DNA of 33,377 bases from Chiloscyllium plagiosum (lineage: Eukaryota). Position 1 is the first letter of the stretch, and each line of letters opens with the position of its first letter. Location: contig NC_057718.1 of NCBI RefSeq assembly GCF_004010195.1, forward strand, positions 333,389 to 366,765, given 5' to 3'. The position numbers were made by a program, and so were the translations under genes. A model generated the notes under the pieces. The model had not been told where the DNA came from and ran no database searches. It saw nothing but the letters and a program-made list of their open reading frames with translations. This document shows positions 863 to 33,377 of the stretch, piece after piece.

Positions 863-1056
863 CTTCAACTGAGGATCCTGCTGATGGCCTTGTACCAGAT
901 GGATTGGGTTGATATGGTCTTGGAGATACAATGTCAGTCTGTCCTGGTGGACCCACCGAACAGTCATCTCCTGAGTAACCGTGGCAACATCTCCATTCCA
1001 TTTCTGTCACCATTTTGTATGCAATCTTGTATCGCGGCTTCATGAAGGAACGATAA
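863..1056 (-). CDS. EMILIN1: EMILIN1 coding exon 3 (second half of EMI domain and Pro/Ser linker)
   Basis: Acceptor tctcacag|T. Encodes YRSFMKPRYKIAYKMVTEMEWRCCHGYSGDDCSVGPPGQ...SSVE, then G|GTGGGT as the likely phase-1 donor; read-through stops at 855. WRCCxGYxGDDC is the EMI C-terminal signature. The donor position is less certain than the acceptor. Confidence 0.94.
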
Positions 1057-4463: not shown

Positions 4464-4589
4464 ATCACTGTCCGTGGGCATTGTAGTGGGCCCCATCCAC
4501 AGGGCTGATACTCAGGTTTGACGAATGTTGCTACACCATCTTCAATGATGCAGGATACCACCCGTGTAACTACATAGGCACACCAATTC
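4464..4589 (-). CDS. EMILIN1: EMILIN1 coding exon 2 (first half of EMI domain)
   Basis: Acceptor tttaacag|G and donor AT|GTGAGT; 126 bp, phase 2-2. Encodes (R)NWCAYVVTRVVSCIIEDGVATFVKPEYQPCGWGPLQCPRTV(I), containing the EMI-domain NWCAYVV motif. Confidence 0.96.
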
Positions 4590-5332
4590 CTGTTAAATAC
4601 AAGGAGAGAGATCAGCCCAGTACGTCAGTATCTGGATCCATTCTCAATGTTCATGCATTTTTAAAACAAGTTAGGCAGTATTTACTGAGAAGGTGAGGCA
4701 GGTTTGGTGGAGGTTATGATGGCAACCTTAGTCTATTGTCTGACCTGTTCATTACTTATAATTAAAGTGCTAATTGTGAACACTCAGCCTGGAATTTTTG
4801 GACAGCAGAGTGGACCTCTGCTGTGGCTAGGTCCAAAAGGTGAGAAGCAACTGGGTGAACCCTGAAAAACAGCTCCCAATTAATCTACTTGAAATGCCCC
4901 TTCTGTGGAGAGGGTCCCCCTCTTTAGTGATCTCCTGGCAGCAGTTGACACCATTAGTGAACTGCTCAATTCCTCAGTTAAAACTTCACCGAGAGCTTCA
5001 AGCCACCCTCAATACTTCCATTGGAGGAGCACTGAGAACCCACTACATTCATGGAATTGGACACTGACTTCAGGAACAGTCAATCAGGAGTCTGCCTGAA
5101 ACGTGCAGAACCTGTCTCATGGCATTGGGACTCCTAGTTTATCCCAAAGGCAGGACCCTGGAGTCCATGGGAAAACCCATCCTGTTCCATTGATCAGTTG
5201 AGGAAATATTCTGAAATATCTACCTTGCCGGAGAAGCTTGCATATGATAACTTTCACTGGTAAATCTATTCACAAATTCCATGTTAGCATATTCCATCTT
5301 AGAAATATATGGACAAGCAGCAAACATTCCAT

Positions 5333-6709
5333 GTGGGATCAGGCCTCACCCTCAACAACTTCTCTTTCCAATCCTTCCACTTCCTCCAGACCAAAGAGGT
5401 AGCCATGGGCACCCCATGGGCCCCAGCTGTGCCTGTCTCCTTACTGGGTACATGGAACAGTCCATCTTCCACAGTTACACTGACACCAGCTCCCACCTGT
5501 TCCTCTGCTACATCGATGACTGTATCAGTGCCACCTCGTGCTCCCACGAGGAGGTGGAACAGTTTATCAACTTTACCAACACCTTCCACCCCAACCTCAA
5601 ATTCACCTGGACCATTTCGGACACCTCCCTCCCCTTCCTGGACCTTTCCATCTCCATCTCTGGCAACAGACTAACCACAGACATCTACTACAAACCCAAC
5701 GATTCCCACAGCTACCTAGACTACACCTCCTCCCACCCTTCCTCCTGTAAAAATGCCATCCCTTATTCTCAAAACCTCTGCCTCAGCCGCATCTATTCCT
5801 AGGATGACCAATTCCATCTTAGAAAATCCCAGATGGCCTCTTTCTTTCAAGATCGCAATTTCTTGTCCCATGTGGTCAACGATGCCCTCCAGCGCATCCC
5901 CTTCACTTCACGCACCACTGCCCTTGAACCCCACCCCTCCCATTGCAACAAGGACAGAAATCCTTGGTCTTCATCTTCCACCCCACTCTGGTACCTTCCC
6001 CTGCCACATCAGGAATTGCAAAACCTGCGCCCACACCTCCCTCCTCACCTCTGCCCAAGGCCCCAAAGGATCCTTCCACATCCATCAGAAATTTTCCTGT
6101 ATCTCTACCAATGTCACCTACTGCATCCATTGCACCCGGTGTGGTCTCCTCTACATCGGGGAGACAGACGCCTTCTTGCGGATTGTTTCAGAGAACATCT
6201 CTGGGACACCCACACCCACCGATCCCACTGCCCCGTGGCTGAACATTTCAACTCCCCCTCCCGCTCCGTCAAAGACATGCAGGTCCTAGACCTCATCCAC
6301 CACCAAACAATTACCACCCGATGCCTGGAGGAAGAAAGCCTCACATTCTGCCTTGGGACTCTGCAACCACATGGGATAAATGTGGATTTCACCAGCTTCC
6401 TCATTCCCCCTCCCCCCACATTACCTCAGTCCCAAGCCTCCAACTTGACACCACTCTCCTGACCTGTTCATTGTCTTTCCCAGCTATCCACTCCACTCCC
6501 CCCTCCTCTGACCTGTCATCTTCTCCCTCACCTTCATCCACCTATCACTTTCTCAGCTCCTTTCCACCGACTTCACCCCCCTCCTATTTATTTCTCAGCC
6601 CCCAGCCCACAAGCCTCTTCCTGATGAAGGGCTTATGCCCAAAATGTTGATTCCCCTGCTCCCCGGATGCTGCCTGACCTGCTGTGCTTTTCCAGCAACA
6701 CACTCTCAA
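5333..6709 (+). mobile_element. Penelope-like retroelement (decayed RT and GIY-YIG, 5'-truncated)
   Basis: RT motifs LTLNNFSF..AMGT, YIDD, LPFLDL and YYKP.DSHSYL; endonuclease motif NVTYCIHCTRCGLLYIGET. The 3' terminus carries a CTGATGA core. Degenerate flanking direct repeats cagcaaacattccat (5318-5332) and cagccaatgttccat (6710-6724). Confidence 0.9.
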
Positions 6710-7099
6710 CAGCCAATGTTCCATTTCAGGCGGGGTGCCTTCAGACAGCAGTAACCACCGGTTATGGCCTTCACGTCACACTTGCAAACATCTGTGAAAT
6801 GGGGCCTTCAGTCATCCAGAAACTCACTTCACCAGACAGAAACTACTGGGTCTCCTATCCTGCAACCATACCCAAGCAGCAGCCACTTCTGGTGATGAGC
6901 CAGTCATTTGGGACCTCGATCTTTGATGGATTGACACTTTTGTCATTTTGTCTTGCTTGTTTATACCCATAATGCACAACAGACAGCAAAGAAGGACACT
7001 ATCATTTCATGGCCATATACCATGTTGCTGACAACACAGGGGCACTGTCAAAAATCTACTTGGTCTTCAGAACTGGCTCCACGTTATCCAGTGGTATTT

Positions 7100-7820
7100 T
7101 GTGAGTCAAGGTTTACTAAAACTAAACAAAAGATACCTCGTGGCATTAGGGATAACACATGAGGATGGATTGAAAATTTGCTGGCTTAGAGGGGAGGCAA
7201 AAATGGGACATGTTCCTGAGTGGCACAAAGAGATAAACGATGTGATACAGGGATCAGTTCAGGTGCTTCAATTTCTTATAATTTATACAAATGACTCAGA
7301 TGAAGGAATGAACAGCATGGTTGCTAAATTTCAGGATGGCACAAAGATAACCGAAAAGTATCTTGTTATAGTGTCGTGCAGCACAGAAACAGACTCTTCG
7401 GGCCTATCAGTCCATCCAGAACATAATCCCAAACAAAACTAACCCTACCTGCCTGCTCCTGGCCCATATCCCTCCAAACCTTATTCATGTATTTATTGGA
7501 ATGGCCTTTATATGTTGTAATTGTGCCCACATCCACCACTCCCTCAGGAAGTTCATTCCACACACAAACCCCCACTCTGTGTGTAAACAATTTACACCTA
7601 TTTATCTCTTTCTTAAATACACTCAATGATTTGGCTTCTACATACGTCTGGCAGTGAGTTCCACTGCCAACCCCCCTCCGAACCTGCTTGTTAACGTACA
7701 GAGAATCCTGAGTTAGGACTCTCAAGTCCCTTTGTGCTTCAGATTTCCAAAGCCTTTCCCCATTTAGAAAACAGTCTACATCAGTATGCTTCCTACCAAA
7801 GTTCCTACCATGACTTAACA
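7100..7820. mobile_element. Old CR1 fragments in both orientations
   Basis: Plus-strand VIQGSV..FLIIYTND..VAKFQDGTKI to about 7365, followed by a minus-strand CR1 3' end (7366 to about 7600) and further pieces. Confidence 0.75.
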
Positions 7821-8607
7821 CTATCCCACATTTTGAAGCCTAAACACACGCATCAGCCGGTTTCGTAATAATTTCTACCCTACTGTTGTTAGATTCCTAT
7901 CGCACTTTTAGTTTGTAACCTGTAAATATTTCCCCTATTCACCTTCAATCTGAAAGTAACCTTACACAGATTGTCAAATTAGCAGCTATTCCCAATCACT
8001 GAACACAGTTTTCCTGTGATGTCACTCTTTCTTTTGTGCTGGGCCCCCGATCCTGAACTACAATTTATCTTGTAAAAAGACCTCACAAACTACAAAAAAA
8101 ACCTATTCCCATCTGTATTGAGTTTCCATACTGCTGCCAAATTCCCCAAACTATATACTTCCTTGAACACGGGTGAGGTCCCCGAGGACTGGAGAATTGC
8201 TAATGTTCCCTTGTTTAAGAAGGGTAGCGAGGATAATCCAGATAATTATAGACTGGAGAGCCTGATGTTAGTGGTAGGAAAGCCACTGGAGAAGATACTG
8301 AGGGAAAGGATCTATTTACATTTGGAAGAAAATAGTCTAATCAGTGATACGCAGCATGGTCTTGTACAGGGAAGGTCATGTCTTACCAACTTAATAGAAT
8401 TCTTTGAGGAAGTGGTAAAGTGATTGATGAGGGAAGGGCTGTAGATGTCATTTACATGGACTTCAGTAAAGTGTTTGATAAGATTCCCCATGGTAGGCTT
8501 ATGGAGAAAGTGAAGTCACATGGGGTCCAGGTTGTACTAGCTAGATGGATTAGGAACTGACTGGGCAACAGAAGACAGAGTAGTAGTGGAAGGGAGTTTC
8601 TCAAAAT

Positions 8608-11532
8608 AGAACATAGAACGTAGAAAGGTACAGCACAGAACAGGCCTTTCAGTCCACGATGTTGTGCTGAGGATTATTCCTAATCTAAAATAAAATAACC
8701 AAACATACGCACCCTTCAACTCACTGCTATCCATGAGCATATCCAGCAGTTGCTTAAATGTCCCCAATGACTCTGCTTCCATCACCACAGCTGGCAACGC
8801 ATTCCATGCATTCACAACTCTCTGTGTAAAGAATCTCCCTCTGACATCTCCTCTATACCTTTCTCTGTATATCTTAAAACTATGACCCCTCGTACCAGTC
8901 AATCCTGCCCTGGGGAAAAGTTTCTGGCTATTGACTCTATCCAAGCCTCTCATTACCTTGTATACCTCGATCAGGTCATCTCTCTTCTTCCTTCTCTCCA
9001 GAGAGAAAACTCTGAGCTTCGTCAACCTTTCTTCATAAGACAAGCCCTCCAGTCCAGGCAGCATCCTGGTAAACCTTCTTTGCACCCTCTCCAAAGCCTT
9101 TGTACCTTTCCTATAGTAGGGTGACCAGAACTGGACACAATATTCCAAGTGTGGTCTCACCAGGGACTTGTCGAGCTGCAGCAAAACCTCGCGGCTCTTA
9201 AACTCGATCCCCTGTTAATGAAAACCAAAACACCGTATGCTTTCTTAACAACCCAATCCACTTGGGTAGCAACTTTTAGGGATCTATGTACTTGCACACC
9301 AAGATCCCTCTGTTCCTCCACACTGCCAAGAATTCTGTCTTTAATCCTATATTCAGCATTCGAGTTCAACCTCCCAAAATGCATCACTTCACATTTATCT
9401 AGGTTGAACTCCATCTGCCATTTCTCAGCCCAGCTCTGCATCCTGTCTATGTCACGCTGCAGCCTGCAATAGCCCTCGATACTGTCGACGACACCCCCAA
9501 CCTTTGTGTCATCTGCAAATTTACTAACCCACCCCTCAACCTCCTCATCCAAGTCATTTATAAAAACTACAAAGAACAGAGGCCCAAGAACAGAGCCCTG
9601 TGGGACCCCACTCACCACTGACCTCCAGGCAGAATACTTCCCATCTACAACCATTCTCTGCCTTCTGTCAGCCAGCCAATTCTGAATCCAGACAGCCAAA
9701 TCTCTCTGTATCCCATATTTCCTGACTTTATGAATGAGCCTACCATGGGGAACCCTATCAAATTCCTGAAGAAGGGCTTATGCCCAAAACGTCGATTGTC
9801 CTGCTCCTCGGATGCTGCCTGACCTGCTGTGTTTTTCCAGCACCACATTTTTCAAGTCTGGTCTCCAGCATCTGCAGTCCTCACTTTCTCCTAGGAACCC
9901 TATCAAATGCCTTGCTGAAGTCCATATACACCACATCCACTGCTCGACCTTTAACCTGCCTTGTCACCTCCTCAAAGAACTCAATAAGATTTGTGAGGCA
10001 TGACCTGCCCCTCACAAAGCCATGCTGACTGCCTTTAATCACGCTATGCTTTTCCAAATAGTCATAAATCCTATCCCTCAGAATTCTTTCCAAAACTTTG
10101 CTGACCACAGACGTAAGACTGACTGGTCTGTAATTGCCAGGGATTTCCCTATTCCCCTTCTTGAAAAGAGGAACAACTTTCACCTCCCTCCCATCCTCCG
10201 GTACGACTCCCGTGGAGAGTGAGGAGGCAAAGATCTTCACCAGCAGCTTAGCGACCTCCTTTCTTGCTTCCCGGAGCAGCATGGGATAAATCAGGTCTGG
10301 CCCCGGGGACTTATCAATCTTAATGTTTGCCAAACTTTCAAGCACATAAACTTCATCAATCTCGATCTGTTCAAGCCTGTTTCTCAGCTCCTCAAAGTTC
10401 TCATTCACAACAAGGTCCAAGTGAAAACCGAAGCAAAAAGCTCATTTAGGGCGACCCTATCTGCTCAGACTCCACACACAAGTTCCCTATGCTATCTCTG
10501 ACTAGTCCTACCTTCTCCCTGATCATTCTCTTATTCCTCACATATGAGTAAAATGCATTTGGGTTCTCCCTAAACCTTCCTGCCAAGCCTTTCTCGTGCC
10601 CCCTCTGGCTCCTCAGTCCATTTCTGAGCTCCTTTCTAGTAAGCCTGTAATCCTCTAAAGCTGTGCTAGATCCTTCCTTCCTCCACCTTACGTAAGCTGC
10701 CTTCTTCCTTTTGACGAGAAGCTCCTCTGTTCTCGTCATCCAAGGTTCTTTAATCTTACCCCTTCTCACCTGTCTCAGAGAAACAAATTTATGCATCACT
10801 CACAACAACGCTCCTTAAACAGTCTCCACATGTCTGTTGTGCCCTTTCTGTGGAACAATTGCTCCCAATCTGTACTTCCCAACTCCTGTCTAATGGCGTA
10901 ATATTTTCCTTTACCCCAATTAAATATCTTCCCTCGATAACTGCTCCTTTCCCTCTCCAAGGCTATGGTAAATGTGAGGCAGTTGTGATCACTGTCACCA
11001 AAATGTTCACTCACCACAAGATCTGACACCGGTCCTGGCCTATTGCCGAGCACCAAATCCAAAATGGCCTCTCCCCTCGTCGGCCTGTCTACATACTGAG
11101 TAAGGAAACCTCCTGAACACACCTGACAAAAACGGGTCCATCCAAACCATCTGCACTAACGATGTTCCAGTCGATATTGGGAAAGTTGAAATCACCCATA
11201 ACAACAACCCTGCTACATCTGCATTTTTCCAAAATCTGCTGGTCTATGGGTTCTTCAATCTCCCTACTGCTATTGGTCTGTAGAAAACCCCCAATGAGGT
11301 GGCTGTTCCTTTACTGTTCCTAACTTCCACCCATACTGACTCAATAGACAAACCTTCCTCAACAACCTTTGTTTCTGTAGCTGTGATGCACTCTCTGATT
11401 AGCAATGCTACACCCCCTCCTCTTTTTCCACCCTCCCTGTTCTTTTTAAATGTTCTAAACTCTGGAACATCTAGCGACCATTCCTGCCCCTGTGAAACCC
11501 ACATCTCCATTATGGCCATAAAATCCTAATCC
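8608..11532 (-). mobile_element. Near full-length CR1 ORF2 (APE endonuclease and RT), frameshifted
   Basis: Encodes GGGVALLI, PTRGEAILDLVL..DSDHN, NYRPVSLTS, GVPQGSVLGP, FADDTK and LEYCVQFWSP. The tail reads agaacatagaac at 8608 on the plus strand, and caaaat flanks both ends. Confidence 0.94.
9764..9893 (+). mobile_element. 130-bp solo PLE terminal fragment with hammerhead-like core
   Basis: Matches 6619-6700. Exact 15-bp TSD ggaaccctatcaaat at 9749-9763 and 9894-9908. Confidence 0.9.
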
Positions 11533-13309
11533 CAAAATGTCGAACTGTGCCCAGTGGTGTTCCACAGGGATCCATGCTGGGACCACTGTTGTTTGTGATA
11601 TACAGAAATGATTTAGAGGAAGGTGTAGTTCGCCTCTTTAGCAAGTTTGCAGATGACACTCAGATTGGTGAAGTAGCAGATAGTGAAGGAGACTGTCAGA
11701 GAATACAGCAGAATATAGACAGATTGGAGAGTTGGGTGGAGAAATGGAAGATGGAGTTCAATCCAGGCAAATGCGAGGAGATGCATTTTGAAAGATCCAA
11801 TTCAAGAATGAACCATACAGTAAATGGAAAATTCCTGGGGAAAACTAATGTACAGAGATTAATGAAAATAAACCTAACCTACTCAACCTCTCTTCATAGC
11901 TAGCACCTTCCATACCAGGCAACATCCTTGTAAACCTTCTCTGCACCCTCTCCATGAACCATACAGTAAATGGAAAAATCCTGGGGAAAACTAATGTACA
12001 GAGAGATCTCGGTGTTCAGATCCATTATACCCTGAAGGTGGTCAAGAAGGCATACGGCATGCTGTCCTTCATCGGACAGAGTATTGAGTACAAGAGTTGG
12101 CAGGTCATGTTACAGTTGTAGAAGACTTTGGTTAGGCCACATTTGGAATATTGTGTACAGTTGTGCTTGCCACGTTACCAAAAGGATGTGGATGCTCTGG
12201 AGAGGGTACAGAGGAGGTTCATCAGGATGTTGCCTGGTATGGAGGATGCTAGCTATGAAGAGAGGTTGAGTAGATTAGGATTAATTTCATTAGAAAGACA
12301 GAGGTTTGGGGGACCTGATTGAGGTCTACAAAATCATGAGAGATATAGACAGGATGGATAGCAAGAAGCTTTTTCCCCAGAGTGGGGGCCTCAGTTACTA
12401 GGAATCACAAGCTCAAAGTGAGAGGGGAGAAGTTTAAGGGAGATATGCTTGGAAGAGGGTGATGGGGGCCTGGAAAGTATTGCCAGTGGAGGTGGTAGAT
12501 GTGGGCATGATAGCGTCATTTAAGATGTATCTAGACAGATACATGAATGGGCAGGGAGCAGAGGGATACAGACCCTTAGAAAATAGGAGACACGTTTAGA
12601 TAGAGGGTATGGATTGGTGCAGGCTTGGAGGGCCGAAGGGCCTGTTCCTGTGCTGCAATGTTCTCTGTTTACTCCGGATATGACATCTTTCTTAAGATCA
12701 CCCTGCATTTTCTATACTCCAAAAGAACCTTTGTCAATTTGCTCTCTTTCTCCTGTAAAAAGCCTCTGTTTTCTTTCTGATCCAGTCCTGAACATTCCTA
12801 GATCTCTAGGAATCTCGAGGCATATTTCTTCTACATGTTATCCTAAAGATAACATGCTGAGCTCAGATTCTCCCCATTCCCTTTTTGACGGTCACCCCAC
12901 TGTTCCATTCTGTTGCAGATTTACTAGAGATCACTGTTCCAAGTCTACTTTGGCTGGATTCTGCCTTGTTTTAATAAAATCTGTCTTCCCCCATTCCAAA
13001 ACCCCTTTTTTCAGACCATCTTTTCCGTCACAAGACTTAAATGATACGAGTGTACAGACCCAGGGTCAGAAGTGGGAGTGACAGACCCTGGGTTTAGTGC
13101 TGTCAATGATGGACCCCAGGGTCAGAGTTGAGAGTGGGAAATTCTTGGAGATTTCTGTCTGGTATCTTTCTCCCACTTTCCACCCACCCATTTCCTAATT
13201 CTGCCTTCTCTCTTTACCCCATCCTCTGCATCCCCCTATCCTGACATTTCCTCACCTCCCAATCTTCCTTTCTGCATCTTATGCTACTTCCTCTCCAAGT
13301 CATCTCACT

Positions 13310-14600
13310 CTAGAACAAAGAACAAAGAAAATTTACAGCCCAGGAACAGGCCCTTCGGCCCTCCAAGCCTGATCCGATCCAANNNNNNNNNNNNNNNNNN
13401 NNNNNNNNNNNNNNNNNNNNNNNNNNNNNNNNNNNNNNNNNNNNNNNNNNNNNNNNNNNNNNNNNNNNNNNNNNNNNNNNNNNNNNNNNNNNNNNNNNNN
13501 NNNNNNNNNNNNNNNNNNNNNNNNNNNNNNNNNNNNNNNNNNNNNNNNNNNNNNNNNNNNNNNNNNNNNNNNNNNNNNNNNNNNNNNNNNNNNNNNNNNN
13601 NNNNNNNNNNNNNNNNNNNNNNNNNNNNNNNNNNNNNNNNNNNNNNNNNNNNNNNNNNNNNNNNNNNNNNNNNNNNNNNNNNNNNNNNNNNNNNNNNNNN
13701 NNNNNNNNNNNNNNNNNNNNNNNNNNNNNNNNNNNNNNNNNNNNNNNNNNNNNNNNNNNNNNNNNNNNNNNNNNNNNNNNNNNNNNNNNNNNNNNNNNNN
13801 NNNNNNNNNNNNNNNNNNNNNNNNNNNNNNNNNNNNNNNNNNNNNNNNNNNNNNNNNNNNNNNNNNNNNNNNNNNNNNNNNNNNNNNNNNNNNNNNNNNN
13901 NNNNNNNNNNNNNNNNNNNNNNNNNNNNNNNNNNNNNNNNNNNNNNNNNNNNNNNNNNNNNNNNNNNNNNNNNNNNNNNGAGAAACTCCCTTCAACTACT
14001 ACTCTCTGTCTCCTGTTGCTCAACCAGTTCTTTATCCACCGAACTAGAACACCCTGCACACCATGTGACTTCACTTTCTCCATTAGTTTACCATGGGGAA
14101 CCTTATCAAACGCCTTACTAAAGTCCATGTTTATGACCTCAACAACCCTTCCTTCATCTAACAACTTGGTCACTTCCTTGAAGAACTCTATTAACTTTAT
14201 AAGGCACGATCTCCCCCGCACAAAACCATGTTGCCTATCACTGATAAGCCCATTCTTTTCTAAATATAAATAGATCCCATCCCTCAGTACCTTCTCCAGC
14301 AACCTTCCCACCACTGACGTTACTGATCTGTAGTTATCCGGAATATCCGTACTACCCTTCTTGTACAGGGGGACAACATAAGCAACCTTCCACCTCACCT
14401 GTATTTAAGGATGCCACAAAGATATCTGTCAGGGCCCCAGCTATTTCCTCTCTTGACTCCCTCAGCAACCTGGGGTAGATCCCATCCAGTCCTGGGGATT
14501 TGTCCACCTTAACAATCTCTAGCATACCCAACACATTTTCCCTACTTATGCCAACGTGAACCAGACTAATCAAACTTCTCTCACTAATCTCAATCTCTAA
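13310..14600 (-). mobile_element. CR1 ORF2 fragment spanning an N gap
   Basis: Encodes DKSPGLDGIYPRLL, QHGFVRGRSCL and DFSKAFDKVPH; tail agaacaaagaacaaag at 13312. Confidence 0.9.
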
Positions 14601-19400: not shown

Positions 19401-19562
19401 AGAGTATGGCAGAGATGCTGTGTGCATCAATGTAGACACAAAGTAAGTGAGCTCTCAGAGAACAGCTCTGAGATGTGGCCTGGTCCAATCCATGAACTGA
19501 TTCCTGTCCCTGTGACAGTGTCACTACAGCAGCTGTTCATTGAGAGGAGGTAGGACAGCATT

Positions 19563-19837
19563 TACAGAACCATAAGTTTTTGTTGCAAACGTTTCGTCCC
19601 CTGTCTCGGTGACATCCTCAGTGCTTGGGAGCCTCCTGTGAAGCGCTTCTCTGGCTCGGGCTTTGTCAACCTGCTGAACAGACATAACAGACAACAGGAC
19701 GTTGAACCCATCAACAAAGACGGCATACTTAAACTACTGGACTTGTGCCTCACAACACACTTCACATTCAACAACCAGATATACGAACAAATCAACGGAA
19801 CACCCATGGGCTCACCCATCTCGGGACTCATAGCAGA
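19563..19837 (+). mobile_element. PLE fragment: inverted terminal repeat plus RT piece, truncated by the minisatellite
   Basis: Encodes ILKLLDLCLTTHFTFNNQIYEQINGTPMGSPISGLIA, a PLE RT motif, with no stop codon. It is preceded by a minus-strand hammerhead-bearing segment. Confidence 0.85.
19584..19626 (-). ncRNA. Minimal type I hammerhead ribozyme-like motif
   Basis: Minus strand reads GCA-CTGAGGA-T-GTCACC-gagaca-GGGGAC-GAAA-C-GTT^TGC. The catalytic boxes are intact, stem II pairs 5 of 6, and stem I is GCA/TGC. Confidence 0.7.
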
Positions 19838-22800
19838 TTTCCCATGCCTGCTGGTTTTCCCCTCCCTTACCTGTTCCTGCTGGTTTCCCCTGTTCCTGCT
19901 GGTTTTCCCATGCCTGCTGGTTTTCCCCTCCCTTACCTGTTCCTGCTGGTTTCCCCTGTTCCTGCTGGTTTTCCCATGCCTGCTGGTTTTCCCCTCCCTT
20001 ACCTGTTCCTGCTGGTTTCCCCTGTTCCTGCTGGTTTTCCCATGCCTGCTGGTTTTCCCCTCCCTTACCTGTTCCTGCTGGTTTCCCCTGTTCCTGCTGG
20101 TTTTCCCATGCCTGCTGGTTTTCCCCTCCCTTACCTGTTCCTGCTGGTTTCCCCTGTTCCTGCTGGTTTTCCCATGCCTGCTGGTTTTCCCCTCCCTTAC
20201 CTGTTCCTGCTGGTTTCCCCTGTTCCTGCTGGTTTTCCCATGCCTGCTGGTTTTCCCCTCCCTTACCTGTTCCTGCTGGTTTCCCCTGTTCCTGCTGGTT
20301 TTCCCATGCCTGCTGGTTTTCCCCTCCCTTACCTGTTCCTGCTGGTTTCCCCTGTTCCTGCTGGTTTTCCCATGCCTGCTGGTTTTCCCCTCCCTTACCT
20401 GTTCCTGCTGGTTTCCCCTGTTCCTGCTGGTTTTCCCATGCCTGCTGGTTTTCCCCTCCCTTACCTGTTCCTGCTGGTTTCCCCTGTTCCTGCTGGTTTT
20501 CCCATGCCTGCTGGTTTTCCCCTCCCTTACCTGTTCCTGCTGGTTTCCCCTGTTCCTGCTGGTTTTCCCATGCCTGCTGGTTTTCCCCTCCCTTACCTGT
20601 TCCTGCTGGTTTCCCCTGTTCCTGCTGGTTTTCCCATGCCTGCTGGTTTTCCCCTCCCTTACCTGTTCCTGCTGGTTTCCCCTGTTCCTGCTGGTTTTCC
20701 CATGCCTGCTGGTTTTCCCCTCCCTTACCTGTTCCTGCTGGTTTCCCCTGTTCCTGCTGGTTTTCCCATGCCTGCTGGTTTTCCCCTCCCTTACCTGTTC
20801 CTGCTGGTTTCCCCTGTTCCTGCTGGTTTTCCCATGCCTGCTGGTTTTCCCCTCCCTTACCTGTTCCTGCTGGTTTCCCCTGTTCCTGCTGGTTTTCCCA
20901 TGCCTGCTGGTTTTCCCCTCCCTTACCTGTTCCTGCTGGTTTCCCCTGTTCCTGCTGGTTTTCCCATGCCTGCTGGTTTTCCCCTCCCTTACCTGTTCCT
21001 GCTGGTTTCCCCTGTTCCTGCTGGTTTTCCCATGCCTGCTGGTTTTCCCCTCCCTTACCTGTTCCTGCTGGTTTCCCCTGTTCCTGCTGGTTTTCCCATG
21101 CCTGCTGGTTTTCCCCTCCCTTACCTGTTCCTGCTGGTTTCCCCTGTTCCTGCTGGTTTTCCCATGCCTGCTGGTTTTCCCCTCCCTTACCTGTTCCTGC
21201 TGGTTTCCCCTGTTCCTGCTGGTTTTCCCATGCCTGCTGGTTTTCCCCTCCCTTACCTGTTCCTGCTGGTTTCCCCTGTTCCTGCTGGTTTTCCCATGCC
21301 TGCTGGTTTTCCCCTCCCTTACCTGTTCCTGCTGGTTTCCCCTGTTCCTGCTGGTTTTCCCATGCCTGCTGGTTTTCCCCTCCCTTACCTGTTCCTGCTG
21401 GTTTCCCCTGTTCCTGCTGGTTTTCCCATGCCTGCTGGTTTTCCCCTCCCTTACCTGTTCCTGCTGGTTTCCCCTGTTCCTGCTGGTTTTCCCATGCCTG
21501 CTGGTTTTCCCCTCCCTTACCTGTTCCTGCTGGTTTCCCCTGTTCCTGCTGGTTTTCCCATGCCTGCTGGTTTTCCCCTCCCTTACCTGTTCCTGCTGGT
21601 TTCCCCTGTTCCTGCTGGTTTTCCCATGCCTGCTGGTTTTCCCCTCCCTTACCTGTTCCTGCTGGTTTCCCCTGTTCCTGCTGGTTTTCCCATGCCTGCT
21701 GGTTTTCCCCTCCCTTACCTGTTCCTGCTGGTTTCCCCTGTTCCTGCTGGTTTTCCCATGCCTGCTGGTTTTCCCCTCCCTTACCTGTTCCTGCTGGTTT
21801 CCCCTGTTCCTGCTGGTTTTCCCATGCCTGCTGGTTTTCCCCTCCCTTACCTGTTCCTGCTGGTTTCCCCTGTTCCTGCTGGTTTTCCCATGCCTGCTGG
21901 TTTTCCCCTCCCTTACCTGTTCCTGCTGGTTTCCCCTGTTCCTGCTGGTTTTCCCATGCCTGCTGGTTTTCCCCTCCCTTACCTGTTCCTGCTGGTTTCC
22001 CCTGTTCCTGCTGGTTTTCCCATGCCTGCTGGTTTTCCCCTCCCTTACCTGTTCCTGCTGGTTTCCCCTGTTCCTGCTGGTTTTCCCATGCCTGCTGGTT
22101 TTCCCCTCCCTTACCTGTTCCTGCTGGTTTCCCCTGTTCCTGCTGGTTTTCCCATGCCTGCTGGTTTTCCCCTCCCTTACCTGTTCCTGCTGGTTTCCCC
22201 TGTTCCTGCTGGTTTTCCCATGCCTGCTGGTTTTCCCCTCCCTTACCTGTTCCTGCTGGTTTCCCCTGTTCCTGCTGGTTTTCCCATGCCTGCTGGTTTT
22301 CCCCTCCCTTACCTGTTCCTGCTGGTTTCCCCTGTTCCTGCTGGTTTTCCCATGCCTGCTGGTTTTCCCCTCCCTTACCTGTTCCTGCTGGTTTCCCCTG
22401 TTCCTGCTGGTTTTCCCATGCCTGCTGGTTTTCCCCTCCCTTACCTGTTCCTGCTGGTTTCCCCTGTTCCTGCTGGTTTTCCCATGCCTGCTGGTTTTCC
22501 CCTCCCTTACCTGTTCCTGCTGGTTTCCCCTGTTCCTGCTGGTTTTCCCATGCCTGCTGGTTTTCCCCTCCCTTACCTGTTCCTGCTGGTTTCCCCTGTT
22601 CCTGCTGGTTTTCCCATGCCTGCTGGTTTTCCCCTCCCTTACCTGTTCCTGCTGGTTTCCCCTGTTCCTGCTGGTTTTCCCATGCCTGCTGGTTTTCCCC
22701 TCCCTTACCTGTTCCTGCTGGTTTCCCCTGTTCCTGCTGGTTTTCCCATGCCTGCTGGTTTTCCCCTCCCTTACCTGTTCCTGCTGGTTTCCCCTGTTCC

Positions 22801-23511
22801 TGCTGGTTTTCCCATGCCTGCTGGTTTTCCCCTCCCTTACCTGTTCCTGCTGGTTTCCCCTGTTCCTGCTGGTTTTCCCATGCCTGCTGGTTTTCCCCTC
22901 CCTTACCTGTTCCTGCTGGTTTCCCCTGTTCCTGCTGGTTTTCCCATGCCTGCTGGTTTTCCCCTCCCTTACCTGTTCCTGCTGGTTTCCCCTGTTCCTG
23001 CTGGTTTTCCCATGCCTGCTGGTTTTCCCCTCCCTTACCTGTTCCTGCTGGTTTCCCCTGTTCCTGCTGGTTTTCCCATGCCTGCTGGTTTTCCCCTCCC
23101 TTACCTGTTCCTGCTGGTTTCCCCTGTTCCTGCTGGTTTTCCCATGCCTGCTGGTTTTCCCCTCCCTTACCTGTTCCTGCTGGTTTCCCCTGTTCCTGCT
23201 GGTTTTCCTATTCCTGCTGGTTTTCCCCTCCCTTACCTGTTCCTGCTGGTTTCCCCTGTTCCTGCTGGTTTTCCCATGCCTGCTGGTTTTCCCCTCCCTT
23301 ACCTGTTCCTGCTGGTTTCCCCTGTTCCTGCTGGTTTTTCCCTGTGCCTGCTGGTTTTCCCCTCCCTTACCTGTTCCTGCTGGTTTTTCCCTCCCTTACC
23401 TGTTCCTGCTGGTTTTCCCCTCCCTTACCTGTGCCTGCTGGTTCCGCCCGTGCCTGCTGGTATTCCCCCCGTGCCTGCTGGTTTTCCCCTCCCTTACCTG
23501 TGCCTGCTGGT
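19838..23511. repeat. 66-bp minisatellite derived from the exon 1 splice junction
   Basis: Unit cccatgcctgctggttttcccctcccttacctgttcctgctggtttcccctgttcctgctggtttt. There are 51 apparently identical copies at 19841-23206, two more units to about 23338 (the first with substitutions), then 29-bp and about 19-bp monomers merging into exon 1. Confidence 0.98.
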
Positions 23512-23652
23512 TGCCCTCACTCCGGGCGCCGCCTGGCTGCTGGGTTCTGCGGGGACAGCCGAGTACAGGGGGTACCTTTGGGGGTAAGTGGCAGCCTGCG
23601 CTCCCACGGGGATCGACAGGAGGCAGAGAAACTGCCAGAGAGACCGGGCCAT
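23498..23652 (-). CDS. EMILIN1: EMILIN1 coding exon 1 (signal peptide and N-terminus)
   Basis: Manual translation from the ATG at 23652 (context GAGATGG) gives MARSLWQFLCLLSIPVGAQAATYPQRYPLYSAVPAEPSSQAAPGVRATSRH plus AG|GTAAGG, a phase-2 donor. The segment has a hydrophobic signal peptide and resembles the recalled human N-terminus (MAPRTLWSCYLCCLL...ASYPPRGFSLY...ASRHRNWC). Its phase matches exon 2. Confidence 0.93.
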
Positions 23653-24240
23653 CTCCGACTCTAAACCCGACAGGGATTCCGATCAACCTCGCTCCCTCCC
23701 GGGACTTCAGCAACTTCCTGAGAAACTTCTCCAAACTGGGAAAACTTTCCTCCCGATCCCGCGACGATGTTTTCATTCAGTTGAGCTCTGAAACTTCCCT
23801 CCTTCCCTGTTTCTCACACTCTGTCTGCTTCTCTCTCTCTTTCCTGGATTTTCTTTCTCTCTCTCCCTCTATCTTCCCGAAGATTTCCTTCCCTGTTTTT
23901 CACTCTCCGCTCTCTCTCTCTCGGGGATTCACATCTGGAGTTAGTTAATCTCAGCCTCCGGAATGTTAAATATCGTTTCGCTGCCAAAAACCCTTTTTAT
24001 TCTCGGAAAACCTGAACTCCTCCCCTAGCAAAGAGGATAGGCTGCCCCAGTCCACAGAAAGTGCCCCCTGCTCTTGCCCTTATCCTCCCCGCCCCTTCCC
24101 CACATTATCCCCTCCCCTGCTCCTCTCTCTCCCTCCCAATTCTCCCCTTCTGTCCTGTCCTGACCTCTTGCCTCAGCTCTGCCTGGTCACATTTCACTGC
24201 TCCTCATTTGCTAACAATATCCAGTGCCCCCCCCCCCCCC
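23653..24240 (-). promoter_or_regulatory. Putative EMILIN1 5'UTR and proximal promoter
   Basis: Non-transposon, relatively CpG-rich sequence immediately upstream of the ATG. It has a GA-rich tract on the minus strand, a GC box (CCCCGCCCC near 24086-24094) and a TATA-like AATAAAAAG on the minus strand near 23993-24001. The transcription start cannot be determined from sequence. Confidence 0.5.
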
Positions 24241-25227
24241 CATCAACAGACAGAGCTGGGGTTCACAATGTGCCAAAGTTAAGGTTTTATTTAATGCCTG
24301 AAGGGACGGGATTCAGGGAAATAATTCCAGAGTTTAGGGTTAAACAGCATTGATGAAACCTGCTGTCCACCAGTAAAGGTCAGAGCCCTATCAGAGGGAG
24401 GGGTGTATTAAATCAGACAACAGCAGAGGACAGAAATGGGAGGGTACAGAGACCTCCAGGAATGGTAGAACAAGAGGAAGTTACAGAGAAGGTAAGGCCA
24501 TGGAGGAATTTGAAACAGGATGAGAATTTTAAAATGGAGGCACAGTTAGAATCTGCTTTCTCGGCAGGTTCTGTGACCTTTGTCTGATTTTTATTTAAAG
24601 GATGACAAACTCCTTCTGTGTTCTCATGTTTGTTTTGAAATCTCTACATGGTACATTTACCAGAAGCTGACTAGATCTTCGGGGTGACTTTGAGAAAGCC
24701 TAGCCTCAATTCCCAGCACCACACTTCAGTCTTGGCCAGCACTTTCATGATGAAGAGGGCCCCAGGGAAAGTTTGTGGAGCTTTAATCTGTGACCAAGAG
24801 GAAGCACACAGTCAGTATTGTCAGCACAAATATCTGAGCCAGACAGACAGACATCCTGAGAAGAACACCAGGATTGACCCACATGAAAGTACCATTGAGG
24901 ATCAGAGCCAAGAGCTCACTGTTGGCAGAATTCCACCTTCATTGTCTCTGTTATACTTACTCTGCCGCACTCTTTTTTGTGAATCCATTTCTCCTGTCAT
25001 CACCTTTTTTTCATTCATTCATTTATTGGGTATTTTTTGTCGATTCCTAATTCCCTAGTTGCCAGTTGAATTGATTGGTTTGCTAGGGCCATTTCAGAGA
25101 ACATAGCAGCACGGACATAGACCCTTCGATCCAACTCATCTACACTGACCAAGTTACCTAAACAGAACAAATCCGATTTATCTGCATTTTGCCCATATCC
25201 TTCTAACCCTTCCATGTTGGATATAGG

Positions 25228-26045
25228 AGGAGAAAGTGAGGACTGCAGATGCTAGAGATCAGAGCTGAAAATGTGTTGCTGGAAAAGCGCAGCAGGTCAG
25301 GCAGCATCCAGGGAACAGGAGAATCGATGTTTCGGTCATAAGCCCTTCTTCAGGAATGAGGAAAGTGTGTCCAGCAGGCTAAGATAAAAGGTAGGGAGGA
25401 GGGACTTGGGGGAGGGGCGTTGGAAATGCGATAGGTGGAGGGAGGTCAAGGTGAGGGTGATAGGCCGGAGTGGGGTGGGGGCGGAGAGGTCAGGAAGAAG
25501 ATTGCAGGTTAGGAAGGCNNNNNNNNNNNNNNNNNNNNNNNNNNNNNNNNNNNNNNNNNNNNNNNNNNNNNNNNNNNNNNNNNNNNNNNNNNNNNNNNNN
25601 NNNNNNNNNNNNNNNNNNNNNNNNNNNNNNNNNNNNNNNNNNNNNNNNNNNNNNNNNNNNNNNNNNNNNNNNNNNNNNNNNNNNNNNNNNNNNNNNNNNN
25701 NNNNNNNNNNNNNNNNNNNNNNNNNNNNNNNNNNNNNNNNNNNNNNNNNNNNNNNNNNNNNNNNNNNNNNNNNNNNNNNNNNNNNNNNNNNNNNNNNNNN
25801 NNNNNNNNNNNNNNNNNNNNNNNNNNNNNNNNNNNNNNNNNNNNNNNNNNNNNNNNNNNNNNNNNNNNNNNNNNNNNNNNNNNNNNNNNGGCGGATGATA
25901 CGTTGTACATGGAGGTTGGTGGGGTGGTAGGTGAGGACCAGTGGGGTTCTGTCCTGGTGGCGGTTGGAGGGGCGGGGCTCAAGGGCGGAGGAGCGGGAAG
26001 TGGAAGAGATGCGGTGGAGGGCATTGTCGACTAGGTCTGGCGGGA
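25228..26045 (-). mobile_element. Young PLE 3' portion (same family as 5333-6709) containing an N gap
   Basis: The reverse complement matches 5880-5985 and 6520-6700/9764-9893, and it retains many CpGs. Confidence 0.88.
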
Positions 26046-28899: not shown

Positions 28900-30840
28900 T
28901 ACAAAAGGCAGCTACAATAGGCAGCTACAAACTGATGAAGCCCTCGAGGGGTATAGAGAAATTAGGAAGGAACTTAAACGTGGAATTAGGAAGGCTAAAA
29001 GGGGCCATGAAATATCTTCAGCAAACAGGATCAAGGAGAATCTCAGGGCCTTTTGTGCAGATATTAAAACAGAGAGGGAAGTTATGCATGAAGCCACAAG
29101 AGGTGGGAGAGATCCTTGCTGAGTACTTTGTATCAGTATTCATCAAGAAGTAGGGCATATCTGACGTTGAGGTTAGGGATGAGTGTGTTATCCAGGGAAT
29201 GTCAACATATTGAAGGAGGAAGCTTCTGGTATTCTAAACTGCATTAAGGTAGGTAGGTCCCCAGGGCCAGATGGGATCTATCCCAGGCCTCTGTAGGAGA
29301 CAAAGGAAGAAGTAGCTGGGACATTAACAGATGATGTCTTCACATCCTCTTTGACCACACGCAAGGTTCCAGAAGACTGGAGATTAGCCAGTGATGTTCC
29401 TTTGTTTAAGAAAGGAATCAGGGATCATCCAGGAAATTATCAGCTGGTGAGCCTGACACCAGTGGTGAGGAAGCTCTTGGAGAAAGTTCTGAGGGACAAG
29501 GTGTGTACATTTGGAAGGAAATGGACTAGTTTTGCACAGGGAAGGTCATGTCCCAATAACCTAATTGAATTTTTTGAAGAGGTGAAAATGATCATTGAAG
29601 AGGGAAAGGCTGTGGATGTAGTTTATATGTATTTTAGCAAGGCATGTGATTAGGTCCCATGTGGCAGATTGTACAAAAATTAAAATCACACGGGATTCAG
29701 GGTAGGCTGGCTAGAAGGATACAAAACTGGCTTGGTCAGAGAAGACAGAGGGTAGTGGTGGAGGGGGGTTTAGAATGGTGACTGGCAACTAGTGGTATTC
29801 TACAGGGATCCATCTTTGGTCCTTTGTTGTTTGTAGCATATATAAATGAACTGGAGGAAAATGCAGATGGTCTGATTGGAGGATTGCAGATGACACAAAG
29901 ATTGGTGGACTTGCTGATAGTGCCAATGACTGTGAAAGGATACAACCGGATATAGATAGTTTGGCAATTTGGGCACAGACATGGCAGATGGAGCTTAACC
30001 CAGACAAATACAATGGGATGCATTTTGGAGAATCAAATTTAAGTGGGAATTGTCCTGTAAATGGCAGAACCCTTAGGAACATTAACATACCGAGGGATCT
30101 GGGTGTGCAGGCCCACAGTTCCTGAAAAGTAGCCACACAGGTGGCCAAGGTGATTAGGAAGGCATATGGCAGGCTTGGGCCTTCATCAGTGGGACATGGA
30201 GTACAGGAGTTGGCAAACAGTGTTGCAGTGATATAAAAACCTTTGTTAGGCTCCATTTGGAACATTGTGTGCAGTTTTGGTCGCCATTCTACCAGACGTA
30301 CCATACTACCAGACGTACCATACTACCAGACGTACGTGGAAGCTTTGGAGAGAGCGTGCAGAGAAGGTTCACCAGGGTGTCGCCTGGTCTCAGGGGCCTT
30401 GGCCAATGGGGAAAGGTTAAACAGACTAGGATTGTTTTCACTGGAAAGATGGCGGATGAGAGGAGAACTGATAGAGGTCTACACAATTGTGAGAGGCACA
30501 GAAAGGGTGGATAGTCAGCGGCTTTTGCCAAGTGTTGAAATTTCAATTACAAGGGGACATAGGTTCAAGGTGAGGGGGGGGGGGAGTTTAAGGGAGATGT
30601 GCGAGGGACACTTTTCATGCAGAGAGTGGGAGGAGCCTGGAACACACTGCCAGAAGCGGTGGTGGAAGCAGGCATGTGGGGGACATTTAAGAGGCTGCTG
30701 GATGGTTACATGAATAGGGAGGGAGTAGAGGGATATGGAATGAATAAGGACAGGTTTGTTTTATGGTTTAGTTTGGGCAAGATGATCAGCACAGGCTTGG
30801 AGGGCCAAAGCACCTGTACTTCTCTATTGTTCTTTTGTAT
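28900..30840 (+). mobile_element. Decayed CR1 ORF2
   Basis: Encodes ELKRGIRKAKRGHE, VPEDWRLASDVPLFKKG, GILQGSIFGPLLF and MRGELIEVY, followed by the 3'UTR. Confidence 0.9.
30284..30334 (+). repeat. 17-bp tandem triplication inside a CR1
   Basis: Three copies of ccat(t/a)ctaccagacgta. Confidence 0.9.
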
Positions 30841-31960: not shown

Positions 31961-33019
31961 GTAGCTTTTACTGTAGTCTTGTTTTTTGCTCATTTTCCCT
32001 CAATCTATAATTTTCTTTTTTAGTAATTTGTTACAGATATTTTAAAGTTTCTAGATGTTCTTGACTACTAGTAATTTTTACAGTTCCATATATCCTTCTC
32101 ATTGTCTTTCTTTTCCAATGGAATACGAGTGTTGTTGTGAATTCTGAAATGTCACCTTTGGTGCCTGATACTTCCACCTCCTCAGTAATCTTGCTTTTAA
32201 CCTCTCCTCCCATTCCAAGTCATCCAAATCTATCTTTATTCCTTTTAATTGCATGTACTTCAGTTTAACTCTCACCGTTACATAGAACATGAAATTCAAT
32301 TGTTAGAATAACTCTTCCAAAAGAGTCCTGCACCTTGATATCATTAATTAATCAGTAAATAATCAGACAGATTACTAAGCACAAAGGAGCCCATTCCCCG
32401 ATTGTTTCCAGCATGTATTGTTCTAAGAAACTATCCTCATTCTCCAAGAAGCCAAAAAGCCACTCTCATCAGTTGTGAAGAAGAGTCATATTGAACTCAA
32501 ATTCTCTCTCTCTCTGCACAGATGTTGCCAGATCCTGATAAGTTTCTTCAATTTTTATGCCACCAATAACTTTCTTCCTTTGCAATTGTTTATTTCTACC
32601 CAAACAGTTCCTCCATTACAATCCTCTGATCCAAGATCATTTCTCACCACTGAATTGATTTCAATGTTTATTCTGAGAATGATTCCACCTCTTTTCCCTC
32701 CCCTCTTGTCATTCCAAAATGTCATATGGCATTATATAATTTCTTCCTTTTTGTGCTATCAATTCATCCATCTTATTTTATGAATGCACACAATATTCAA
32801 AGAGCTTTTAATTCTGTTTTTTTGACATTTTTCCTTACTCTGACTTTATTTGACTTGAAAATTGATACATTTTTACAGCACAGAAGGAAGCCATTTGGTC
32901 CATCATATCCATGGTCAATAAAATCAGATTACACTTACTCCATTTTCCAGCTCTTGGTCCACAGTACTAGACGTTATAGCACCACAAGTGAATATCTAAG
33001 TACTACTTAAATGTTACAG

Positions 33020-33377
33020 GGGTGGGGGAGCCCATGGAGGAAGCTCACCACCATCCTGTCAAAGGTACCAAGGAAAGGGGAAGAAATGTGGTTGTTATGG
33101 GGGACTTTAACTTTCCTGATATTGATTGGGAAAGCTATAGCTCAAGTTCGTTAGATGGGTCAGTGTTTGTTCAATGTGTGCAGGAGAGTTTCCTGACACA
33201 ATATGTAGATAGGCCAACAAGAGGTGAGGCCATACTGGATTTGGTTCTGGGTAACGAACCAGGCCAGGTGTTAGAATTAGAGGTAGGTGAGCACTTTGGG
33301 GATAGTGACCACAATTCGGTGATTTTTACTCTCGTGATGGAGAGGGATAAGTGTGCACCACAGGGCAAGAGTTATAG
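33020..33377 (+). mobile_element. CR1 endonuclease fragment running off the window
   Basis: Encodes VVVMGDFNFPDIDW...FLTQYVDRPTRGEAILDLVLGNEPG...DSDHN. Confidence 0.9.

Follow-up and report, generated by a model that had tools for sequence, protein, structure and literature searches.

A minisatellite may have its first monomer lying across an exon–intron boundary, with the splice donor reiterated in the intron: Borensztajn et al. (2006) described this class, with human examples in F7 IVS7, IFI6, CBS, LMNB2 and PDGF (PMC1557585). Here, we analyze an array of splice-donor copies at the start of intron 1 of the EMILIN-1 gene of the shark Chiloscyllium plagiosum, carried on the minus strand of a 33,377-nucleotide stretch of contig NC_057718.1 (assembly GCF_004010195.1, positions 333,389 to 366,765), hereafter the window, to whose first letter all positions refer. 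The array is a boundary-spanning minisatellite with a reiterated 5′ splice site, of the F7 IVS7, IFI6 and ABCA7 type: four of five features that define the class were compared and all four were found, the fifth being length polymorphism (VNTR, a tandem repeat whose unit number varies).

The described systems differ in how the copies are used. The F7 IVS7 minisatellite comprises 5–9 copies of a 37-bp unit; its identical pseudo-sites are functional and only the most upstream site is used (PMC1557585). At the exon 2/intron 2 boundary of IFI6 (6-16), 25 pseudo-sites have been counted (Turri et al. 1995, via PMC1557585 and PMC4526556). LMNB2 and PDGF intron 4 use the authentic donor only, and CBS intron 13 uses the authentic donor together with two copies (PMC1557585). 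Finally, in the ABCA7 intron 18 VNTR the exon 18 donor forms part of a 25-bp unit, and alleles range from ~0.3 to ~10 kb; longer alleles go with lower expression and with skipping of exon 19, retention of one unit is found at ~2%, and the authors detected no influence of length on nonsense-mediated decay (NMD) (De Roeck et al. 2018, PMC5954066).

The repeat type and the idea of silent pseudo-donors are thus already known from human genes, and the shark locus is a large, fresh example of them. We put at roughly 0.7 the probability that its array arose lately through slippage and is a tolerated by-product, with the first site being used and the pseudo-donors passed over, and not a selected device.

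Fifty-seven identical donors and the one used in transcripts

The sequence CAGGTAAGG occurs 57 times in the window, always on the minus strand and always inside 19865–23500, compared to a chance expectation of 0.45 on average and 2 at most (100 dinucleotide-preserving shuffles). One of these sites is the authentic donor of exon 1 and 56 are copies of it: the donor G lies at 23497 in the authentic site, at 23428, 23399 and 23370 in the three nearest copies, and at 23302 and then every 66 bp down to 19870 in the other 53, giving donor-to-donor spacings of 69, 29, 29, 68 and 52 times 66 bp. The longer sequence CAGGTAAGGGAGG is likewise present at 57 of 57 sites. Indeed, the 13-mer at all 56 copies is identical to that of the authentic donor, and the sole change near the donor is a C to A substitution at position −5, which 55 of the 56 copies carry. 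Outside the array, the sense strand of the intron holds no site matching the donor consensus at 8 or more of 9 positions.

The host gene is EMILIN-1, as judged from an EMI domain split over exons 2 and 3 (Pfam EMI, E 5.9e-7 in exon 2; exon 3 is given in Table 1) and from best matches that bear this name; the assignment rests on this N-terminal domain, the C-terminal gC1q part falling outside the window. When exon 2 was compared with longer proteins, 27 were returned, all of them long proteins with a precomputed EMI domain, 24 named EMILIN-1 and three nameless (P0005, P0020 and P0024). The best match, P0001, is EMILIN-1b of Chiloscyllium punctatum and is 100% identical over exon 2. Exon 1 aligns with the N-termini of named EMILIN-1 proteins; because its protein sequence differs from that of P0001 at three residues (S4P, Q19R and T22I), we do not equate the gene in the window with that record.

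To see which donor is used, window positions 23290–24400 were compared with four runs: X9, X13 (organism A), X14 (organism B) and X21. The first three have no RNA label on record and were taken as RNA since their contigs are spliced; X21 consists of raw single-cell RNA reads, of which ~2% of the run was read. The contigs cover exon 1 from 23939 (X9), 24034 (X13) or 23933 (X14) down to 23497, an extent that places the transcript start ~440–540 nt from the array start. Past 23497, the contigs of all three runs go on for another 30 letters, whose reverse complement is 4588–4559, i.e. the start of exon 2. The canonical junction, 23498 to 4589, is therefore present in three of three informative runs, with a one-base ambiguity because the intron and exon 2 each begin with G. 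X21 gave one read, at about 24100–24240, and was uninformative. No joint or loose end is listed at any repeat copy in the contigs of the three informative runs, bearing in mind that contigs drop rare variants; with the same limit, the site used in mature RNA is the most upstream one in all three assemblies.

Use of a copy would have a definite consequence for the protein. In the spliced RNA, the last two bases of exon 1 (AG) open codon 52 and the first base of exon 2 completes it. If the donor is read through, codon 52 becomes AGG with the first base of the intron and an in-frame TAA comes next, upstream of the later junctions, with exons 2 and 3 downstream. An occasional mRNA spliced from a copy would be expected to stop at codon 53 and to be lost by NMD.

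The sequence-only reading of this DNA had named EMILIN1 as the host gene, placed the exon 2 acceptor at 4589, read the junction as exon end ACCAGCAGGCACAG followed by intron start GTAAGGGAGGGGAAA, listed 57 identical donors and predicted an in-frame stop after 52 codons on read-through; the domain and protein matches, the RNA junction, the minus-strand sequence, the motif count and the TAA at 23496–23494 uphold these points in turn. It had also suggested a search for RNA in which repeat donors are joined to exon 2 at 4589. None of the three informative transcript assemblies contains such a product: each uses the first donor only.

Two further possibilities were tried and rejected. Splicing inside the array was discounted, as the 20 nt upstream of every AG in it are 15–35% pyrimidine and offer no plausible acceptor. 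Masking of the copies by RNA structure was discounted as well, since three units fold weakly (z = −1.9) into a centroid with small hairpins only.

Note that the first 130 nt of intron 1 are without a contig. In the 5′ untranslated region (UTR), the contigs differ from the window in CT/TC-rich runs (23846–23909) by insertion of TC at 23851 and of CT or CTCT at 23909, which have the look of microsatellites varying in length between animals or species. Over exon 1, the contig of organism B is free of base substitutions relative to the window.

Anatomy and origin of the repeat

Tandem Repeats Finder describes the array as 53.7 copies of a 66-bp period with 99% matches (19838–23386), preceded by a proximal part with periods of 21, 29 and 58 bp; it is thus a head-to-tail array whose unit falls in the ~10–100 bp range of the class. 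The motif ACCAGCAGG occurs 166 times, each time inside 19838–23511, the first time in the exon, and is absent from the window past the distal end at 19838. Cutting the sense strand at each occurrence yields 166 sub-units. The first sub-unit, 29 nt long (23511–23483), joins the exon end to 15 intron bases and so holds the exon–intron junction, whose position is confirmed by the RNA contigs. It is followed by two donor-less sub-units of 21 and 19 nt, an exact second copy of the 29-mer starting at 23442, two further 29-mers with the C to A change at −5, and donor-less sub-units of 20 and 19 nt. Beyond this point the array becomes regular, each 66-bp block being made of 29 nt with a donor and of 18 and 19 nt without. 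Among the 53 blocks, 51 do not differ at all, one carries two changes, and the last breaks off at 19838, giving way to unrelated sequence. The coordinates are collected in Table 1.

Table 1. Features of the EMILIN-1 locus and its array, in window positions
Feature	Position	Strand	Description
EMILIN-1 exon 1 (5′ UTR and coding)	23498..24034	-	Open reading frame (ORF), ATG, transcript contigs, alignment with EMILIN-1 N-termini; 5′ limit approximate
Exon 1 coding part	23652..23498	-	155 nt, 52 codons, ends TSRHR
Authentic 5′ splice site CAG/GTAAGG	23492..23500	-	G of GT at 23497; TAA at 23496-23494; RNA contigs leave the genome here
Founding 29-bp monomer, boundary-spanning	23483..23511	-	14 nt of exon (ACCAGCAGGCACAG) and 15 nt of intron; exact recurrence at 23442
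Proximal heterogeneous repeat	23317..23482	-	Seven sub-units of 19-29 bp, three with a donor (G 23428, 23399, 23370); split at ACCAGCAGG
Homogeneous 66-bp higher-order array	19838..23316	-	53 donor copies (G 23302 to 19870)
Flank of distal array end, open frame	19554..19837	+	Opposite strand; reverse-transcriptase look by eye, unconfirmed
EMILIN-1 exon 2	4464..4589	-	126 nt, first half of EMI domain; acceptor AG just upstream; first 30 nt follow exon 1 in RNA contigs
EMILIN-1 exon 3	863..1056	-	194 nt, second half of EMI domain, Pfam EMI E 6.7e-11

The polarity of the process can be read from the protein. Exon 1 ends by encoding T-S-R-H-R directly before the NWCAY of exon 2, and R-[HY]-R is found at that place in 24 of 27 EMILIN-1 homologues, the set covering cartilaginous fish, amphibians and mammals; in the other three, the N-terminus is different or missing. 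As a result, the junction is the ancestral element, and copying went from it to the array: on this sequence comparison, the exon is ancestral and the array derived.

How the array grew can be pictured as follows. A 29-bp piece (14 nt of exon and 15 nt of intron) would have been tandemly duplicated by replication slippage or unequal exchange, some copies would have lost the GTAAGGGAG part, leaving donor-less sub-units of 18–21 bp, and the resulting 66-bp block (29 + 18 + 19) would then have grown, very recently, to ~53 copies. The outcome is 56 pseudo-donors identical to the authentic site in both the 9-mer and the 13-mer; the splicing machinery would pick the most upstream, cap-proximal donor and the copies would leave with the intron. 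The identity of 51 of 53 units, i.e. zero differences over 3,366 bp, points to recent expansion or to continuing homogenization. If ~1e-9 changes per site per year are assumed, a sequence of such a length would gain one change per ~0.3 million years.

Both the copy number of ~53 and the homogeneity come from one assembly, and part of them might be an artifact: the repeat would be real, and its length and uniformity (~53 identical units) would reflect in part an error in the estimated copy number or the polishing of the consensus. Copies cannot be counted from short-read contigs, and 51 units without one difference are unusual for a minisatellite. On the other hand, DNA-type runs for four samples of two studies contain 0.71–0.82 of the sampled proximal-repeat and junction words (weak evidence, silent on array length), a contig from one of the RNA runs matches 23331–23369 exactly, and the array is cleanly ordered, its proximal part being older and heterogeneous, as would be expected in a genuine locus. 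We regard a partial artifact as unlikely.

A few observations concern the surroundings and relatives of the array. The open frame that adjoins its distal end has no Pfam match at E ≤ 0.1, and no Rfam family reaches the gathering score in the window. A metagenome scan with a 38-nt piece of the unit gave 0 matches, which is uninformative on other sharks. The AT skew of the repeat is near −0.86 on the plus strand.

Gene models of other cartilaginous fish differ at this very exon. In the whale-shark EMILIN-1 model P0002, the N-terminus that precedes NWCAY, MNINNGSRCWGTGLISPLVFNR, corresponds to what the final ~70 nt of intron 1 encode when translated (4590–4660, minus strand), a stretch that holds a stop codon here; this model probably begins within the intron, without exon 1. 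In the Mustelus EMILIN-1 model P0003, too, the N-terminus is unrelated. Annotation should therefore be handled with care at this locus: the exon 1 described here is absent from 2 of 13 cartilaginous-fish EMILIN-1 models examined.

Functions considered for the array

The array starts at the first base of intron 1, directly downstream of the promoter and first exon. One proposal is that of a selected regulator tunable by copy number, in which the copies act as decoy donors that generate NMD-sensitive mRNAs, or as a local sink or platform for U1, a small nuclear ribonucleoprotein (snRNP), near the promoter. Sequence prerequisites of the decoy mechanism are present: the sites are identical, every copy product would carry the TAA at codon 53, and the distance from the authentic donor is a multiple of 3 for 54 of the 56 copies. 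Since the copies share the 13-mer of the authentic site, they would be expected to bind U1 equally well, and the array opens only some 440–540 nt from the transcript start. ABCA7 supplies a precedent, with VNTR length inversely tracking expression and one-unit retention at ~2% (PMC5954066). By contrast, the three informative transcript assemblies use the first donor only, the pseudo-sites of F7 do not compete unless raised to perfect consensus (PMC1557585), and the large size of the shark array is evolutionarily new, judging from its 51 identical units. We therefore hold such a regulator to be improbable. A selected, length-variable dial, in which dozens of full-strength U1 sites just behind exon 1 would attract U1 and the transcription apparatus, or would channel a fraction of the transcripts that depends on length into stop-containing RNAs, hidden by NMD from ordinary RNA-seq, seems to us more doubtful still; if it existed, animals with other unit numbers would make other amounts of EMILIN-1, a protein of the elastic-fiber matrix.

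The length and content of intron 1 bring in another potential role. The sequence-only reading had described this intron as long and filled with transposon sequence; it measures 18,908 nt and contains reverse-transcriptase fragments in both orientations, with RVT_1 matches in 4 of 8 ORFs tested (9157–9777, 9881–10441 and 14002–14404 on the minus strand, 11496–11903 on the plus strand; E 6.5e-19 to 3.3e-12). Its sense strand also carries 11 poly(A) hexamers (4 AATAAA and 7 ATTAAA). U1 bound at 5′ splice sites represses nearby poly(A) sites (cited in PMC4889658 and PMC7462061), and the array could accordingly be imagined to load U1 snRNP and to shield the 18.9-kb intron from premature cleavage and polyadenylation (telescripting). 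The geometry is ill-suited to this role. The hexamers span 2.2–13.2 kb beyond the array end, the nearest being ATTAAA at 17672 (2.2 kb) and AATAAA at 16758 (3.1 kb) and the farthest lying at 6592; on the sense strand, the array itself and the 2.1 kb past its distal end are free of them. The range of telescripting in mammals is ~1 kb. In Drosophila, its median is ~500 nt (PMC4889658, citing Berg 2012). No U1 site thus lies within reach of a poly(A) signal that it would shield: 56 sites are crowded into 3.6 kb that need no protection, and no site with at least 8 of 9 consensus positions stands among the hexamers (0 outside the array). Because the hexamers are far from the array and the range of U1 is short, telescripting fits poorly, and we consider it highly improbable.

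As side observations on the transposon content, reverse-transcriptase ORF fragments are reported for window positions 5200–14400 and for the upstream flank at 33000–33375, and N runs at 2500–2607, 13383–13979 and 25519–25889 interrupt such elements. A 17-bp tandem repeat of 3.1 copies with 97% matches lies at 30284–30335, in a transposon-like region upstream of the gene.

An effect could also arise without selection. The unit is 79% purine on the sense strand, with a GC skew of +0.35 and four G3–4 runs per 66 nt, a composition that could favor R-loops or G-rich structures; 3.6 kb of purine-rich, G-skewed non-template strand might form these or bind factors, and thereby reduce or modulate transcription in a length-dependent manner as a side effect. 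The length-dependent decrease in ABCA7 expression has been ascribed to causes other than NMD (PMC5954066), in keeping with this idea. In the shark unit, however, the loops between G-runs are 15–24 nt long. Canonical quadruplex motifs have shorter loops. Such a side effect appears very unlikely to us.

The sequence-only reading had advanced tunable control through decoy donors and NMD or a U1 sink, as well as protection of the intron by U1, with neutrality as a fallback. Neither function finds support, given the use of the first donor only in three of three informative runs and the distance of the hexamers from the array; on the same first-donor use and on a very young expansion, we judge neutrality to be the better reading.

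Several points nevertheless weigh against a tolerated, functionless by-product. Contigs show the dominant form only, so that rare isoforms or isoforms degraded by NMD may escape them; since, in addition, copy products carry a premature stop, minor use of copies is possible. X9 contains a 39-nt contig inside the proximal repeat that matches 23331–23369 exactly, with a depth of 5.2 compared to 81.6 for the exon (~6%). Some RNA therefore contains repeat sequence, which may reflect unspliced precursor RNA, an allele difference or a filter effect. The perfect homogeneity could stem from gene conversion under selection, or from the assembly, instead of youth. Finally, a tolerated array need not lack an effect, because the length of the ABCA7 VNTR tracks both expression and exon skipping.

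Comparison with known splice-donor arrays

The shark array shares with F7 IVS7 a first monomer that spans the boundary, identical pseudo-sites behind the authentic donor and, in normal RNA, use of the most upstream site only (PMC1557585). It differs in scale and organization, with 56 pseudo-sites compared to 4–8, set in a 66-bp higher-order unit that includes donor-less sub-units. The authentic site is also strong (CAG/GTAAGG), whereas that of F7 is weak (UGG/gugggu; PMC1557585). Moreover, the F7 exon is internal while the shark array lies in a first intron; as a result, the shark exon is defined by the cap and not by an upstream acceptor. The cap-binding complex favors the cap-proximal donor (PMC7462061), and the upstream 5′ splice site is tethered to RNA polymerase II while the intron is being made (PMC8316553). 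By analogy, these two mechanisms may account for the success of the first site when the exon is a first one.

The other human cases diverge in further respects. In IFI6, too, an authentic donor is followed by pseudo-sites from a boundary-spanning minisatellite (PMC1557585, PMC4526556), but the two nearest copies are used constitutively and give rise to protein isoforms, whereas the shark copies bring an in-frame stop and none is seen used. CBS intron 13, LMNB2 and PDGF intron 4 have the same architecture with 10–20 copies, in internal introns (PMC1557585). Like the intronic cryptic 5′ splice sites implicated in telescripting, the shark copies are strong U1-type sites in a long first intron; unlike them, they are packed beside the donor and far from the hexamers, while telescripting sites are reported to be found together with poly(A) motifs beyond the reach of the authentic site (PMC4889658). 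In a loose literature search combining EMILIN1, repeats and sharks, EMILIN1 was absent from the 12 papers listed out of 8,648, a result that cannot show the array to be unpublished.

The closest match in size is ABCA7: both arrays are kilobase-scale, start at a donor and reiterate it, and in both the use of the next copy gives a stop-containing RNA, through a frameshift in ABCA7 (PMC5954066). For ABCA7, polymorphism, the link to expression, unit retention and exon 19 skipping have been measured, whereas the shark array is known from one assembly and transcript contigs. ABCA7 is also the known case in which expression depends on array length, the kind of effect that the sequence-only reading had advanced. 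Should the shark array vary in length in step with expression, the ABCA7 VNTR would have a counterpart outside humans.

The locus is valuable mainly because nature here puts the choice of a 5′ splice site to the test: within 3.6 kb, 57 strong donors of identical sequence are transcribed long before the sole acceptor, 18.9 kb away, and the dominant RNA takes the first. It could help to tell models in which a cap-proximal or polymerase-tethered site prevails apart from those that rely on the strength of the site, and it extends the F7 case, with its 4–8 weak pseudo-sites behind an internal exon, to a strong site behind a first exon.

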